Below are positions 34,396 to 64,000 of a DNA stretch of 64,000 nucleotides, one piece after another (within the stretch, counting starts at the first letter, position 1; each line of letters opens with the position of its first letter). The notes under the pieces were generated by a model, which was not told the origin of the DNA, did no database searches, and saw nothing but the letters and a program-made list of their open reading frames with translations. The stretch comes from Escherichia coli (GTDB taxonomy: Bacteria; Pseudomonadota; Gammaproteobacteria; Enterobacterales; Enterobacteriaceae): assembly GCF_013315695.1 (NCBI RefSeq), contig NZ_CP054353.1; one strand, 5' to 3'. The position numbers and the translations under genes are program-made.

Positions 34396-34695
34396 CATAT
34401 CACCAGGAGCCGCGGCTCCTTTGCGTATCCTTTTTTGTCTCCTCACCGTCTGGTCGGTGTCCTGCTGAGACTGCTAACTTCCTGTTTTTATTGGTGTTGT
34501 CCTTACACCGTCCAATCATGATTGGCTGGCGGAGTTTGAATAAATATTGTATTACTTTGATTTTTAATGATTTTGTTTGATTCAGTTTTTGTGCGTATAC
34601 CTAATCGTATACCAATGGCTGTAAGTTAATGTGAAATGAAAGCGCATTTTTACTTGGATTGATGCTATATCGTACAGGAAAAAAATTTTTTTTCG

Positions 34696-34980
34696 AAAGA
34701 ACTGTTCACACTGTTCACCTTTCTTTTTTCTCCTTTTATTTCATAGTGATAGGTGGTGAATAATGGGTGAAGGGTGAACATTCGATTCTTCACCTCCGGC
34801 ATTCTGCCGGTGTGACTTGTGCAGGGGATTAATTTCCCGTGCTGAAATCACACCGGAAGAAAAAAGTTTTTTTTGATTTGATTGTTCACACTGTTCACCT
34901 TTCGTTTTTCTCTTTTAATTTCAGTGTGATAACGGGTGAATATACGGTGAAGGGTGAACAGTGGATTGTTCACCTTCGGG
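34696..34980. repeat. iteron cluster (P4 ori/crr-type): tandem ~180-bp units containing direct and inverted TGTTCACC octamers
   Basis: ttgttcacactgttcaccttt and ggtgaagggtgaaca recur twice; downstream of alpha. Confidence 0.65.
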
Positions 34981-35033
34981 GGATTCAGGGATAAAAAAAG
35001 ACCGGCAGATGCCGGTCAGATGAGTCATGATGG

Positions 35034-37367
35034 TCAGGTTGTTGCAGGGTCGTCACATTTTGGCAGCCAGTCGCCGTAGCTTTCCTCTTTCAGCGTCAGG
35101 TTGGTCTGTATCCCCTGTTTGGTATGGCGCTTCTCGTAATTCAGTCCGTATTCCTTCAGCATCACCGGCAGCCCCAGCCCGAACATTTTCAGACTGAGTA
35201 CATTCCGGTAGCCGTTTGCCTCCATGTAGGCCAGATAGGCGTGATAGAGGTATTTACGGTAATTACGCGGGATGATACTGGCGTTCCCCATATACATGCC
35301 GCTGGTCTGCAGCAGGGTTTCCAGATAGCCGATAAAATCAAACGTCGGGTCGGCATCCCGTTTGATGTTCAGTGCCTCGTCTGAGTTCTGCTGGGACTGA
35401 AGCAGTGACCGGGCGAGCATCGGGTCGCTGAACTTCTGCATCAGGTGACGCACGATGACCGCCAGCTCGCGGGTGATTTTGTCCTTAAGCTGCGGGTCGC
35501 GCTCCTGCGGGGCTATCTGTTCCGGGAAGTGAATAATCACCCGCCGGCGTGACACGCCGCCGCTGCGGTCGGTGAAGCGCATCGGGTTATTGTTCACGGC
35601 CAGAATCACCGCCGGGATGTGCGTGGAGTACGCATCCCGGTATTTCGGGTCAACGGACACTGCATCGCCGCCGGTGATGGCCTTGAGTCCGGCTCCGTCG
35701 CCGCTCCATTTTTCCTGGTCCGGCAGGCGTATCAGTGAGAAGCCAGTTAACGCGGCACGTTCACGCGGGGATTCCAGCGTCTCGATGGTGGCCGACGTGG
35801 CGTTATCCTCACCGGCCAGCAGGGTGGCGATTTCGGCCATGATACTTTTGCCGCTGCCGCCGGGACCGGTCACCTCCAGAAAGAGCTGCCAGTCGTAGCG
35901 GTTTGCCAGCACCATAAACAGTGCGGCCAGAATCACGTCGCGTTTTTCCGCACGGCCACCGGCGGCACGGTCAAGCCAGCGCCAGAACGCGGGGGCGTGG
36001 GTCTCCAGCGTTTCACCGTCCACCGGCGGGGTGAAATCCACATCGCACAGGGTGCGCATCCAGTGTGACGGACTGTGCGGATGGAACGTGCCGTTCTGCG
36101 TGTCGAGCACGCCGTTACGAAAGCCAATCAGGCGGCGGGAGGGGGCTTCCTGCTGCGGAATAATCAGTTTCAGGGTGTCCACCACGGAGGCCACCTTCCC
36201 GGAGGAGAACGGCGCGCGCAGACGCTGAAACAGCCCGGCCACATCCCGGGCAAAGTCCTGTGGCGGCAGCACCTTCCAGACACCATTTTCATAGCGGGAC
36301 AGAAGCTGGCCGTTGGCATCGACCGCGAGCGCCTCGCCGTAATGCTCATAGATACGCATGGCCTTTTCGCTGGTACTCATGGCGGAAAACTCTGCTTCGC
36401 TCATGGTGTCGAACGGGCTTTCAGCCGGTGGCCGGATGGCATCGTAAATGGCCTTACGGGTGGCCTCCCCGCCGTACTGCGTGAAGGCATCATTCCAGTC
36501 ACCGAAGACCGGCGGCAGGGCAACAACGCCCTCACACGCATCTGCGGCTGCGGCGGCTTTTTTCTGGCCGTCACCGCTGAGGTCACGGTCTGCGGCAAGG
36601 ACAATCTGACAGGCCGGATGCTTCTGCCGGGCAAGGCTGGCCAGAGAAAGGAGGTTCACGGAAGAAAGCGCCACCATCACCGTTTCACCGGTCAGGTGAT
36701 GCACGGTAAGTGCGGTCGCGTATCCCTCCGCTATCCACAGACGTTTTCCGGCCTGATTCTGTCCTTCAAGGGTGTGACAGGTGCCCCTGACCTGTCCGCC
36801 TTTCAGGGTGCGCTTACGGCCGTCAGCACTGATTAACTGAAGGTTAACCAGTTCGCCGCTGTCGTCATACAGTGGCACCACAAGGTCACCGGCGCGCCAG
36901 CTCACGCCACCGGCTCTGTGTGTGCCGGTCAGCATCCGGCATTCCCGGCCGGGAAAGCCCTTGCGGGTCAGGTAGGCGTTACCGGTTCCGGGACGGGTTT
37001 TTGCCATCAGGGTTTGTGCCAGTGCGGCGGCGTTCTTCCGGGCAGCGTCTGTTTCAGCAACGGCGGCGGCCGTCACTGCCGGGTCAGCCGGGGGCAGGCT
37101 GCCGGTCACGGCAGCCACCTTTGCGGCCGCGTCGGACGGAGAGACACCAAACACCTTTCCAACCAGTTTCAGGCCGTCACCGGCACCACACTGATTGCAG
37201 TACCAGGTGCCGCGCCCCTCCCTGTCATCAAAACGGAAGCGGTCACTCCCGCCACAGACCGGACAGGGCTGATGACGGTTTTTCAGCACCTGAATCCCCA
37301 GCGCCGGGAGAATACGCGGCCAGTGGCCGAGCGCATGGCTGACGGTGGCGGTTACGTTCATTTTCAT
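35034..37367 (-). CDS. P4 alpha-type primase-helicase replication protein
   Basis: 777-aa ORF; N-terminal zinc motif CPVCGG...CNQCG; central Walker A GPGGSGKS. Confidence 0.9.
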   Translation of the reverse strand: MKMNVTATVSHALGHWPRILPALGIQVLKNRHQPCPVCGGSDRFRFDDREGRGTWYCNQCGAGDGLKLVGKVFGVSPSDAAAKVAAVTGSLPPADPAVTAAAVAETDAARKNAAALAQTLMAKTRPGTGNAYLTRKGFPGRECRMLTGTHRAGGVSWRAGDLVVPLYDDSGELVNLQLISADGRKRTLKGGQVRGTCHTLEGQNQAGKRLWIAEGYATALTVHHLTGETVMVALSSVNLLSLASLARQKHPACQIVLAADRDLSGDGQKKAAAAADACEGVVALPPVFGDWNDAFTQYGGEATRKAIYDAIRPPAESPFDTMSEAEFSAMSTSEKAMRIYEHYGEALAVDANGQLLSRYENGVWKVLPPQDFARDVAGLFQRLRAPFSSGKVASVVDTLKLIIPQQEAPSRRLIGFRNGVLDTQNGTFHPHSPSHWMRTLCDVDFTPPVDGETLETHAPAFWRWLDRAAGGRAEKRDVILAALFMVLANRYDWQLFLEVTGPGGSGKSIMAEIATLLAGEDNATSATIETLESPRERAALTGFSLIRLPDQEKWSGDGAGLKAITGGDAVSVDPKYRDAYSTHIPAVILAVNNNPMRFTDRSGGVSRRRVIIHFPEQIAPQERDPQLKDKITRELAVIVRHLMQKFSDPMLARSLLQSQQNSDEALNIKRDADPTFDFIGYLETLLQTSGMYMGNASIIPRNYRKYLYHAYLAYMEANGYRNVLSLKMFGLGLPVMLKEYGLNYEKRHTKQGIQTNLTLKEESYGDWLPKCDDPATT

Positions 37368-37381
37368 GGTGTTGTTCTCCT

Positions 37382-37702
37382 TCAGTGCAGTACCGGCGCT
37401 TTTATGTGACGGGCACAGAGTTCATCCATCACAACCAGCCCGAGAAAGGACAGCGACGGCGCGGCCTTCAGGGGGCCGGATTCCATTAAATCTTCCAGCA
37501 GGGCACAGGCTATCTGACGCCCTTTTTCCTCACCGTGCTGGCGCAGATAAAAGCCTTCCAGCTCAGCGGCGATGGCCGCCTCCAGTGACTCAAGGGTGAG
37601 ATGCGGGTAGCGGTGCTGACGTTCGCACACGGTCAGCCAGGCACAGGCGACAGCGCGACGGTAAAGGGCAGCACGTAAGACGGGCGGTAAGGGTGTTTTC
37701 AT
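37382..37702 (-). CDS. hypothetical protein of satellite left operon
   Basis: 106-aa ORF immediately upstream of alpha, same strand. Confidence 0.5.
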
Positions 37703-63015: not shown

Positions 63016-63218
63016 TGAAAGTGCGTGCGCATCAGTATGACACGGTGGACGCACTTTGCTGGCGTCATTACGGGCGCACGCAGGGTGTCACGGAGCAGGT
63101 ACTGAAGGCAAATCCGGGGCTTGCCGAATACGGCCCCTTTTTACCTCACGGGCTGCAGGTGGAGCTGCCGGACATTCCGACAACCACCACCGTGCAGACC
63201 GTCCAGCTATGGGACTGA
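63015..63218 (+). CDS. tail protein X-like (LysM-like)
   Basis: 67-aa ORF; same length and position as P2 gpX. Confidence 0.6.
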   Translation: MKVRAHQYDTVDALCWRHYGRTQGVTEQVLKANPGLAEYGPFLPHGLQVELPDIPTTTTVQTVQLWD

Positions 63219-63221
63219 ATT

Positions 63222-63437
63222 ATGACGCTTGAGCGAATCAGCGCCTTTATCACGTATTGCATCGCCGTCGTGCTGGCCTGGCTGGGCGATTTGTCCATCA
63301 AGGATGCCTCAACGCTGGGCGGCCTGATGATCGGTGTGCTGATGCTGGCTATCAACTGGTACTACAAACACAAAGCCTACCAGCTTCTGCGCGACGGGCA
63401 GATCTCGCGGGAGGACTATGAATCCATCAATCGTTAA
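63222..63437 (+). CDS. holin
   Basis: 71-aa ORF with TM helices and charged C-terminus, immediately upstream of lysozyme. Confidence 0.6.
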   Translation: MTLERISAFITYCIAVVLAWLGDLSIKDASTLGGLMIGVLMLAINWYYKHKAYQLLRDGQISREDYESINR

Positions 63438-63930
63438 ACGCTGCCTTGTCGGGGCCGTGCTGGCTATTGCTGCCACGCTGCCGGGGTTTCAGCAGCTTCA
63501 CACCTCCGAGGAGGGACTGAAACTGATCGCCGATTATGAAGGCTGTCGTCTGCAGCCGTATCAGTGCAGCGCGGGTGTCTGGACCGACGGCATTGGTAAT
63601 ACGTCGGGCGTCATTCCCGGCAAAATTATTACGGAACGACAGGCAGCTGAAGGGCTGATCTCCAACGTGCTACGAGTGGAGCGGGCGCTGGAAAGGTGTG
63701 TGAAGCAACAGCCGCCGCAGAAGGTGTATGACGCTACGGTGTCGTTTGCCTTCAACGTGGGGACGGGCAATGCCTGTAGTTCCACGCTGGTGAAATTGCT
63801 CAATCAGCGGCGCTGGGCGGATGCATGCCGACAGTTGCCGCGCTGGGTTTATGTGAAAGGTGTTTTTAATCAGGGGCTGGATAACCGCCGTGGGCGGGAG
63901 ATGGCCTGGTGTTTACAGGGAGCAAACTGA
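63418..63930 (+). CDS. phage lysozyme/endolysin (P2 gpK-like)
   Basis: 170-aa ORF; signal-anchor-like N-terminus; EG...GIGNT-type lysozyme block. Confidence 0.8.
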   Translation: MNPSIVKRCLVGAVLAIAATLPGFQQLHTSEEGLKLIADYEGCRLQPYQCSAGVWTDGIGNTSGVIPGKIITERQAAEGLISNVLRVERALERCVKQQPPQKVYDATVSFAFNVGTGNACSSTLVKLLNQRRWADACRQLPRWVYVKGVFNQGLDNRRGREMAWCLQGAN

Positions 63931-63941
63931 AATGAAAAAGA

Positions 63942-64000
63942 AATTAATCAGCGGACTGTTTCTGATGTTATGGATGGCGCTGTTAATCGCAGCAATGGTG
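63942..64000 (+). CDS. N-terminal fragment of lysis accessory protein (LysA/LysB-like); runs off window end
   Basis: ATG at 63942 encoding hydrophobic MKKKLISGLFLMLWMALLIAAMV. Confidence 0.3.

Follow-up and report, generated by a model that had tools for sequence, protein, structure and literature searches.

How a P4-type satellite came to lie directly beside a P2/186-family prophage in an Escherichia coli chromosome, and whether this adjacency has any functional meaning, is the question raised by the locus next to ypjA. The window (the whole 64-kb stretch of DNA analysed) carries, in order, ypjA, a satellite (34523-45429), a 45-nt copy of the ssrA 3' end and a prophage from 45475 onward (Table 1). 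The ypjA flank is 99.8% identical to the flank annotated ypjA in MSB1_4I and AF3. The original prediction of a complete P4-like satellite separated from a P2/186-like prophage by the end of the tmRNA gene was borne out: the satellite is 97.4% identical to P4, the prophage combines a 186-type switch with P2-type head genes, and the separating 45 nt match the ssrA 3' end annotated in E. coli AF3 at 100% identity. The Rfam tmRNA model gives a truncated match there (E = 1.1e-16), aligned with high posterior probability to model positions ~330-374. This 45-mer has no second copy in the window, and no intact tmRNA gene was found in these 64 kb.

Table 1. Features of the ypjA-satellite-prophage array (positions in the window; ".", no strand assigned)
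Position	Strand	Feature	Basis or remark
29689..34362	+	ypjA (adhesin-like autotransporter)	1557-aa ORF; left chromosomal boundary of the array
34523..34540	-	Satellite distal att, short and damaged core of the ssrA 3' end GGCTGGCGGAGTTTGAA	Homologous to K-12 psaA
34680..34979	+	crr (cis replication region), two 120-bp direct repeats	Repeat family D1; P4 4291-4590, annotated crr
35034..37367	-	alpha primase-helicase, 777 aa	99.2% identity to P4 alpha over 776 aa
37382..37702	-	P4 orf106 (DUF5375)	100% identity to P4 ORF106; annotated DUF5375 in AF3
37838..38293	-	P4 orf151	98% identity
38286..38573	-	epsilon, P4 derepression protein, 95 aa	97.9% identity to P4 epsilon; Pfam 'Derepression' in identical satellites
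38566..39165	-	Icd/ASH-like ORF across P4 immunity region	94% identity to P4 'cI' ORF137; Icd-like in AF3
38818..38905	-	P4 CI immunity RNA (Rfam C4 antisense RNA)	RF01695, 76.2 bits, above gathering score
39013..39090	-	isrK-family RNA element in immunity leader	RF01394, 72.5 bits
39162..39428	-	orf88 (Vis/AlpA-like helix-turn-helix protein)	98.9% identity to P4 ORF88
39531..39548	.	TGT-N12-ACA dyad, P4 ori / late-leftward promoter region	Pattern search
39891-39908, 39929-39946	+	Pair of TGT-N12-ACA dyads just upstream of sid	Judged by position, at ~-55 and -18
39981..40715	+	sid, capsid size determination, 244 aa	98% identity to P4 Sid
40712..41212	+	delta, Ogr/Delta zinc-finger late activator, 166 aa	97.6% identity to P4 Delta
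41286..41858	+	psu, polarity suppression / capsid decoration, 190 aa	98.9% identity to P4 Psu
42022..42040	+	Satellite cos 19-mer GGCGAGGCGGGGAAAGCAC, exact P2/P4 type	Exact match, 0 expected by chance
42075..44033	-	NACHT + SNaCT5 protein, 652 aa	Pfam NACHT, SNaCT5; defence cargo in cos-adjacent hotspot
44037..45245	-	Satellite tyrosine integrase, P4/IntA type, 402 aa	61% identity to CP4-57 IntA, 37% to P4 Int
45430..45474	-	Middle att, displaced 45-nt ssrA 3' end	Shared int-proximal att of satellite and prophage
45590..46240	-	216-aa cargo ORF between att and phage int	phrog_21256
46255..47271	-	Prophage integrase, P2/186 type, 338 aa	54% identity to 186 Int; 99.9% to LR-33 copy
47273..47905	-	CI repressor, 186-type, 210 aa	32% identity to 186 CI; Pfam Phage_CI_repr in identical-length homologues
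48025..48267	+	apl/cox-like excisionase-repressor	30% identity to 186 Apl
48300..48809	+	cII, 169 aa	68% identity to 186 CII
48817..51253	+	Early operon: fil, DUF5347, DUF2732, TraR/DksA, DUF3850, Dam methylase	
51250..53664	+	A replication endonuclease, 804 aa	
53757..53776	+	LexA-box-like palindrome TACTGTAAATATAAACAGTA	Ahead of 62-aa and DinI/Tum-like genes
53817..54249	+	62-aa ORF and DinI/Tum-C-terminal-like ORF (77 aa)	Gene calls in 100%-identical L012
54520..55577	+	71-aa and 280-aa backbone ORFs ahead of cos	In all related prophages whatever the hotspot content
55695..55713	+	Prophage cos 19-mer GGCGTGGCGGGGATACGAG, Felsduovirus-type variant	In register with annotated 186 cos
55904..56923	+	Hotspot cargo, cos to portal: membrane protein (138 aa) and membrane-anchored TIR protein (200 aa)	Translation, TIR matches
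56956..59750	-	Portal (Q) and large terminase (P)	62-63% identity to 186 W and P homologue; Pfam domains
59797..59814	.	TGT-N12-ACA dyad between divergent P and O operons, Ogr/B activator site	Aligns with 186 B site
59893..64000	+	Late operon: scaffold O, capsid N, small terminase M, L, X, holin, lysozyme, LysA start	Runs off window

The satellite is intact and all P4 core genes are present. Positions 34680-42021 align with phage P4 (X51522 / NC_001609) 4291-11624, from crr to cos, in one ungapped-like piece, and the P4 record ends and begins at the position of the satellite cos, whose 19-mer is identical. The proteins alpha, orf106, orf151, epsilon, orf88, sid, delta and psu are all full length (94-100% identity), and the CI RNA and the crr/ori repeats are shared as well. 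The left arm of P4, in contrast, has been replaced: gop, beta and cII were absent from the satellite on comparison with P4 proteins, and the NACHT-SNaCT5 gene lies in their place. Defence hotspots adjacent to cos are known in P2 and P4 elements (PMC9122126). The integrase also departs from that of P4, and the site used is ssrA; in AF3 and other genomes the integrase gene adjoins intact ssrA. P4 itself integrates at a tRNA-Leu gene.

In K-12 the slot between ssrA and ypjA is occupied by the cryptic prophage CP4-57. The original prediction had the position right but called this element unrelated, which does not wholly hold, as its IntA is 61% identical to the satellite integrase and a homologous short att remnant lies by ypjA (psaA, a 14-nt pseudo-ssrA in K-12). 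The rest of CP4-57 is unlike the satellite; it is 22 kb long, lacks sid, delta, psu, alpha and cos, and bears the unrelated cargo rnlAB, abpAB and yfj genes. The corresponding distal att of the satellite was not found by repeat search; it was located by aligning the ypjA-side junctions of the window, AF3, HS4, EC3 and LR-33, with K-12 psaA compared. It is ~9-16 nt long and has a 5-nt deletion relative to K-12 and HS4, which could impair excision. Such short damaged att fragments have been reported for satellites (PICIs) and not for prophages (PMC10111431).

The element from 45475 onward is a Felsduovirus (186/Fels-2-like) prophage of the P2 family. It continues past the window end, and all of its genes that can be seen are intact. 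It was compared with Salmonella phage RE-2010, the Fels-2 group, Klebsiella phage 4LV2017 and phage 186. Felsduovirus records show 91-96% nucleotide identity over 70-79% of the visible prophage, and RE-2010 carries the same 45-nt ssrA block in its terminal repeat. The CI/Apl/CII/Fil switch, with a repressor of the 186 type and not the P2 C type, the P2-type head module and the cos-adjacent hotspot are features of the Felsduovirus/186 group, while the membrane protein and TIR gene pair in the hotspot and the 216-aa gene beside att set the window prophage apart. The cos-to-portal cargo locus is variable among related prophages; the gene order of the early operon is as in L014-L018 and in EC3. 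Phage 186 differs in integrating at ileY, which is unoccupied in the window. The LexA-box-like palindrome was the single match in the search (0.08 expected) and lies at the position of the p95/LexA site of 186, and the DinI/Tum-like ORF is 43% identical to Tum residues 71-145. From its sequence, the prophage appears to be SOS-inducible.

Tail genes, ogr and a far att were not found within the 64-kb window, and nothing past the lysis genes is visible. The right-hand element could on this ground be a defective remnant, or be rearranged past the window, and thus a dead prophage with no helper capacity; some ssrA-site copies of this prophage type have decayed, as in LR-33, where only int, CI, apl and a partial cII are left between ypjA and ssrA (int 99.9% identical), or in L031, where a truncated portal is fused to tail-fibre genes together with an IS. 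We consider this unlikely, since every gene in the visible 18.5 kb is full length and agrees with the gene calls in copies of 99.95-100% identity, complete prophages lie at the ssrA site in HS4 and EC3, and the closest copy extending past the window end (L006/L025, 99.95% identical) has complete baseplate, fibre, sheath, tube, tape-measure, D and ogr genes. Among long contigs, the closest relative of the late region (99.95% identical) is located at ybjL with a different integrase. Late modules thus recombine, and this relative is uninformative on the far end of the window prophage. By analogy with the copies at ssrA, the prophage would be complete and would meet ssrA at its far end.

Other genomes show the stages of such an array. 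In AF3 the satellite is alone beside intact ssrA, 99.85-100% identical to that of the window and differing only by an IS1. EC3 carries a full 32-kb prophage of the window type alone between ypjA and ssrA. The complete genome of HS4 (NZ_CP142035.1, ~1255.6-1303.7 kb) has the whole array of ypjA, P4-type satellite, 45-nt att, Felsduovirus prophage, ssrA and smpB, as have ~18 other complete genomes; its satellite integrase is 87% identical and the hotspot cargo differs in both elements. The identical satellite is found without a partner, in tandem with another satellite, and next to three different Felsduovirus prophages (those of the window, L050 and L052), which argues for repeated independent insertions. 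Because the window sequence is joined by genomes showing each intermediate state, the reading as a tandem of satellite and helper-type prophage at an att derived from ssrA is supported. Given the 45-nt repeat and the cos-like sequences that both elements share, an assembler might in principle have made a chimeric join at the repeated ssrA fragment, and the exact window junction is in no complete RefSeq E. coli genome. That the junction is such an artefact is nevertheless barely credible, as the same architecture exists in independent assemblies (HS4, L050 and L052 with the identical satellite integrase, and the ~19 complete genomes) and the junction sequence is exactly as site-specific integration predicts.

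It is therefore highly probable that two elements with different tyrosine integrases inserted successively into the 3' end of ssrA, and we infer that the satellite most likely came first. The P4-type satellite, bearing a NACHT gene in the cos hotspot and an integrase resembling IntA, would have entered the ssrA end, leaving a damaged short att core beside ypjA and regenerating ssrA next to its own integrase gene. A Felsduovirus phage whose attP held the 45-nt copy of the ssrA end would then have entered the regenerated ssrA and given it a new 3' end, presumably beyond 64 kb, so that the old 45 nt were left stranded between the two elements. As the middle fragment serves as att for both, independent excision of either element would be expected.

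The satellite carries the full P4 kit for exploiting a P2-family helper: delta, sid, psu, cos and predicted Ogr/Delta-responsive TGT-N12-ACA promoters. The neighbouring prophage is a plausible but unproven helper, at the level of its class only, because of its matching late-promoter site, related cos and apparent SOS inducibility. The claim that this motif is shared by both elements stands for known activator sites, namely the 186 B site (the dyad at 59797-59814 aligns with the annotated B-protein binding site of 186, 3798-3817) and the region upstream of sid; the motif as such is not enriched, with 17 occurrences in the window by pattern search against 14.9 expected. We take the dyads upstream of sid to be Psid activator sites, on established P4 knowledge of the promoter, and the dyad at 39531 to be the PLL activator site, its role being taken from the P4 literature. 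The two cos 19-mers were predicted to be similar, and so they are, but not identical: 14 of the 19 positions match and 5 differ, with 36/46 matching in the 46-nt core. The prophage 19-mer is invariant across 13 related prophages and differs from that of 186 at 4 positions and from that of P2 at 5. No cos co-adaptation was observed in the neighbouring satellite/prophage pairs compared.

Helper-embedded PICIs, another family with intimate cis-coupling, are also physically linked to a helper-type prophage: they sit inside a late gene of the helper and are cis-regulated (PMC10111431). The window elements, in contrast, are neighbours at a host gene and show no sign of coupling. The tandem might still have been selected, through co-excision of the composite, in-situ replication of the helper amplifying the satellite, or transcripts of the phage int/CI operon that read through the 45-nt att as far as the satellite integrase gene; the example of these PICIs, the common orientation of both integrase genes and the 216-aa gene over the middle att, and the recurrence of the tandem with several prophage variants would fit such a function. 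We hold it to be quite improbable. The satellite-att-prophage type of junction occurs in ~19 of 5426 complete E. coli genomes, and the two integrase families in 219 and 396 of the 5426; independent integration predicts ~16 joint occurrences, these being raw genome counts in which clonal relatives are each counted. The adjacency is thus without enrichment. Further, the identical satellite is alone at ssrA far more often than in tandem with a prophage, the cos sites are not co-adapted, and the two outer att sites are those of different integrase systems (a 9-16-nt core of the IntA type and a 45-nt block of the P2 type), for which reason the composite should be resolved by neither integrase. The elements adjoin as a by-product of using one insertion hotspot and form no functional unit.

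Tandem genomic-island arrays at tmRNA were reportedly described by Williams in 2003 under the title 'Traffic at the tmRNA gene'. Such arrays are documented at tRNA and tmRNA genes, with tmRNA the most enriched target (PMC4383910). As in the Islander tandem arrays, each member here brings an integrase and a tDNA fragment of its own, the fragments lying in the same orientation (PMC4383910); the window pair differs in that a satellite is joined to a member of its helper class, and in that the satellite fragment is short and damaged. The arrangement is thus of a known kind, one that arises ordinarily and repeatedly where two elements use the same hotspot.

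The original prediction of a satellite and a helper-type prophage in tandem at an ssrA-derived attachment site is confirmed as an observation, and its interpretation is supported. The two elements lie side by side, and the 45-nt ssrA copy that had been claimed between them is borne out, as 45430-45474 is identical over 45 nt to the annotated ssrA 3' end of E. coli AF3. In the Rfam tmRNA model this middle fragment aligned confidently at the 3' end, the remainder of the truncated match being low-confidence filler, and the 45-mer has one copy in the window. No tmRNA gene was detected within the 64-kb window. 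The flank at 20000-34500, which ends in ypjA, has 99.8% identity with E. coli chromosomes including MSB1_4I and AF3. The window holds one tRNA gene (26596-26671), which is Met(CAT) according to ARAGORN, whereas RefSeq relatives annotate it as tRNA-Ile (ileY type). Over the last 46 nt at its 3' end it has 2 mismatches to the phage 186 attP copy, and thus the canonical 186 attB is unoccupied and is situated 8 kb to the left of the array.

Features of the array and its left flank (window coordinates)
Feature	Coordinates	Strand	Remarks
ypjA	29689-34362		right-hand end of conserved flank
Distal att remnant	34523-34540		GGCTGGCGGAGTTTGAA
CI RNA	38818-38905		Rfam C4 family, 76.2 bits
TGT-N12-ACA, two copies	39891-39908, 39929-39946		ahead of sid
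Satellite cos	42022-42040		GGCGAGGCGGGGAAAGCAC, exact P2/P4 cohesive-end 19-mer
NACHT + SNaCT5 protein, 652 aa	42075-44033	-	occupies place of P4 gop-beta-cII
Middle att	45430-45474		copy of ssrA 3' end
216-aa ORF	45590-46240	-	phrog_21256; between att fragment and phage int
Prophage cos	55695-55713		GGCGTGGCGGGGATACGAG; by alignment to annotated 186 cos, flanks conserved
Membrane protein and TIR protein	55904-56923		138 aa, multi-pass; 200 aa, N-terminal membrane helices; hotspot between cos and portal
TGT-N12-ACA	59797-59814		between divergent P and O operons; aligns with annotated 186 B-protein site

Alignment of the ypjA-side junctions of the window and of the E. coli genomes AF3, HS4, EC3 and LR-33 placed the distal att boundary at about 34523. 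The remnant left there consists of GGCTGGCGGAGTTTGAA alone and is homologous to psaA, the 14-nt pseudo-ssrA at the end of the cryptic prophage CP4-57 in K-12. K-12 psaA and four further genomes back the assignment when aligned with it. The remnant (34520-34525) is without 5 nt (GGTGG) that are kept in K-12 psaA (K-12 locus L041, about 23473-23486) and in HS4. The same deletion was observed in AF3. Short, damaged and displaced fragments are reported to be typical of satellites (PICIs) and not of prophages (PMC10111431). The short length of the distal core made a generic repeat search of the window miss the att repeats, and a 22-nt core scan missed them likewise. In the terms used by Islander, each member has its own integrase (a 402-aa P4/IntA-type and a 338-aa P2-type protein) and its own co-oriented tDNA fragment, which is a perfect 45 nt for the prophage and a short damaged core for the satellite.

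The left-hand element (34523-45429) has a size of 10.9 kb, and its region 34680-42021 corresponds in one piece to P4 coordinates 4291-11624 at 97.4% identity. A P4-like satellite was defined by int, alpha, epsilon, an alpA/vis-like gene, sid, delta and psu in order, with no capsid or tail genes and a length of about 10-11 kb; this core-gene set was found in the element, and the AF3 annotation is concordant. Searches by tblastn with P4 proteins recovered the core proteins, all full length and 94-100% identical, the homologues being alpha, orf106, orf151, epsilon, the immunity-region ORF, orf88, sid, delta and psu. Both 120-bp repeats of crr are kept. The CI RNA points to RNA-based immunity, and like it an isrK-family element scored above the Rfam gathering score. 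The cos, placed between psu and the int-side hotspot as a P2-type cos, is at the start and end point of the linear P4 record. By its gene set, cos and CI RNA the element is a P4-like satellite, and small-capsid, helper-dependent packaging would be predicted for it. That it is phage P4 in the strict sense was rejected, as its integrase is 37% identical to P4 Int (61% to IntA of CP4-57), its att is at ssrA, and tblastn with P4 proteins did not find gop, beta or cII in it. The NACHT protein with SNaCT5 has the same architecture as bacterial NACHT proteins that act against phages (10.1101/2022.07.19.500537), and cos-adjacent defence hotspots are known in both P2- and P4-type elements, the NACHT gene sitting in the satellite one (PMC9122126). 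It was observed that this protein is identical across many ssrA satellites.

The right-hand element (45475 to beyond 64000) begins with the 216-aa gene, a P2/186-type integrase, a 186-type CI (210 aa), apl, cII, fil and small early genes. These are followed by Dam, the A replication protein, a perfect LexA-box-like palindrome, a 62-aa ORF and a DinI/Tum-like ORF, then by two conserved ORFs (71 aa and 280 aa), cos, and the membrane protein with the membrane-anchored TIR protein. Up to the window end the order is portal, large terminase, scaffold, capsid, small terminase, L, X, holin, lysozyme and the start of LysA; the packaging and head genes (Q-P / O-N-M-L) form a module of P2 type, and its late promoter region is divergent. 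Relative to 186, CI is 32%, Apl 30%, CII 68% and the C-terminal part of Tum 43% identical; a 186-type CI/Apl/CII switch and a LexA box are thus present, and the operon with the DinI/Tum-like ORF is a predicted SOS-controlled antirepressor operon. The closest deposited phages are of the genus Felsduovirus: RE-2010 has 90.8% identity across 74% of the visible part, and Klebsiella phages reach 95-96% (4LV2017, 96% across 69% of the visible part). The RE-2010 record opens with a repeat in which this 45-nt ssrA block recurs, and similar phage sequence comes next. The integrase allele (46255-47271) is rare, as at least 99% identity was seen in 1 of 5426 complete E. coli genomes, the other 218 genomes with this integrase family being at 80-90%.

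Decayed prophage copies are known at the ssrA site, and the right-hand element could in the same way be defective, which we consider unlikely. All visible prophage genes match in length those of 99.95-100% identical copies elsewhere. A complete tail module, D and ogr occur at other places in late regions of 99.95% identity, as well as in EC3 and HS4, which are other strains; in the array described here the tail genes, ogr, the far att and intact ssrA would lie past the 64-kb limit. One contig (L012) is 100% identical over 10.6 kb and stops in the tail-fibre region. Another prophage (L006/L025) is 99.95% identical but is located at ybjL with a different integrase, and therefore is no guide to the far end of the prophage in the window. 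This case shows that prophages exchange late modules. Over 53418-64000, the loci L006/L025 (GCA_029942985.1) and L008/L028 share a 99.95% identical replication-to-lysis region with the same TIR cargo; their prophage sits at ybjL-ybjM-grxA, where relatives have a 350-aa integrase. This indicates that Felsduovirus prophages which are otherwise near-identical have recently swapped their integration modules.

The prophage also carries cargo. The membrane and TIR protein pair resembles in kind the TIR and transmembrane system of the P2-like AC1, which is protective against lambda and P2 (PMC9122126). PADLOC recognised no system among the cargo genes, returning a marginal match to Avs2 (E = 0.002) alone for the NACHT gene and TIR domain matches for the pair. 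The 216-aa ORF had no Pfam or PADLOC match, and it may represent a third cargo slot of Felsduovirus prophages. An identical protein was seen in more than 1300 collection blocks, in E. coli and Salmonella-type contexts (iroBC neighbours), which hints that the att-int module has recently moved between genera. The array thus holds three candidate anti-phage loci within 15 kb, namely NACHT-SNaCT5, the membrane protein and TIR pair, and the 216-aa gene.

Other genomes display the parts of the array separately and together. The AF3 satellite is 99.85-100% identical to that of the window, with an IS1 as the sole difference, and lies directly beside intact ssrA-smpB. This IS1 (AF3 locus L002, 12474-13243), absent from the window, is inserted between the NACHT gene and int, and a 9-bp overlap at 44042-44050 is its apparent target duplication. 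EC3 has a complete 32-kb prophage of the same type alone between ypjA and ssrA, and LR-33 has a prophage remnant at the same place with a 99.9% identical integrase. In HS4 the whole analogous array is found as ypjA-satellite-att-prophage-ogr-ssrA-smpB, ending in intact ssrA. Most probably an AF3-like ancestor carried the satellite at ssrA and a Felsduovirus phage then integrated into that ssrA. From the satellite int through the end of the 45-mer the window is 100% identical to the AF3 int-ssrA junction, which is the expectation for such an entry. The identical satellite, with the same Int and NACHT, occurs elsewhere alone at ssrA (many assemblies), in a satellite-satellite tandem, and beside two other Felsduovirus variants that differ in cargo; these varied settings indicate repeated independent insertions. 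In one genome (L045/L046; GCA_041899145.1, CP169104.1, about 1899-1928 kb) this P4-type satellite was observed twice in tandem at ssrA, the ssrA-proximal copy being truncated after epsilon and the distal one complete. No match at 80% coverage or more to the window junction 44800-46300 was found among complete RefSeq E. coli genomes. The two integrases use sites in the ssrA 3' end that overlap without being the same, an IntA-type core of 9-16 nt and a P2-type block of 45 nt, and the middle fragment thus serves as att for both elements. Each would then excise singly, and neither integrase would be expected to resolve the satellite-prophage composite.

It had been claimed that both elements carry similar cos sites and a common late-promoter motif. 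The cos claim stands at the level of class, since the two 19-mers match at 14 of 19 positions within a 36/46 core; a search with the P2 cos 19-mer at up to 3 mismatches found the satellite copy alone and missed that of the prophage. GGCGTGGCGGGGATACGAG has 4 differences from the 186 sequence and 5 from that of P2/P4, and these all fall in the right half. Co-adaptation of cos between the neighbours was rejected, as GGCGTGGCGGGGATACGAG does not vary among 13 related prophages, which occupy three different integration sites, and adjacent P4-type satellites (window, AF3, HS4) retain the P2/P4 version. A further cos variant, GGCGTGGCGGGGAGAACAT, was seen in a degraded satellite at the locus L014. 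The motif TGT-N12-ACA does occur at the 186 B-protein site and ahead of sid, and these copies are predicted late-promoter activation sites in both elements. As a statistical signal it was rejected, with 17 occurrences in the window against 14.9 expected, and its meaning comes from position alone. The spacings of the two satellite copies fit the known -55 and -18 Delta sites of Psid, and these copies are plain inheritance from P4.

The phage integrase family is present in 219 and the satellite integrase family in 396 of 5426 complete E. coli genomes. Under independence about 16 joint cases are predicted and about 19 genomes have the full satellite-side/att/phage-side junction, these being raw genome counts that ignore clonality and in which some integrase matches are not true satellites. 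At 80% or more, the junction was found in 37 of the 5426 genomes. Nothing suggests an enrichment of tandem adjacency, and a special linkage between satellite and helper was rejected because observed and expected counts are about equal. The satellite carries the complete set of P4 tools with which a helper of the P2 family is exploited, and on its side the prophage has an activator site that matches, a cos of related sequence and, apparently, SOS control. The prophage repressor, however, is of 186 type, and the known target of P4 epsilon is the P2 C repressor. That the prophage could be competent as a helper for the satellite is plausible. It is very improbable that the shared att alters the biology of the satellite, for instance by SOS induction of the prophage prompting in-cis excision or amplification, with mobilisation by a helper of non-P2 cos and repressor. 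In-cis routes of this sort might be read-through from the co-oriented phage int and 216-aa genes, or in-situ replication, and the helper range of P4 would then be wider than known. P4-like satellites are present in a large share of Enterobacterales genomes. If a Felsduovirus neighbour were shown to mobilise a satellite with P2-type cos and a P2 C-specific epsilon, this would bear on the helper range of P4-like elements.

Williams (2003, 'Traffic at the tmRNA gene') reportedly described tandem arrays at tRNA and tmRNA genes, with exceptional use of the latter. Such arrays, and a use of the tmRNA gene that is out of the ordinary, are established (PMC4383910), and P4-like satellites are abundant and often co-occur with P2-like prophages (PMC8628076; 10.64898/2026.02.27.708500). 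Our literature search found no paper singling out a P4-type/Felsduovirus tandem at ssrA. Such a tandem exists in public complete genomes and is fully accounted for by known rules. The array is a clean textbook case of integrative elements piling up at the tmRNA gene, and it illustrates how P4-type satellites exchange integrase and defence modules around a nearly invariant P4 core.
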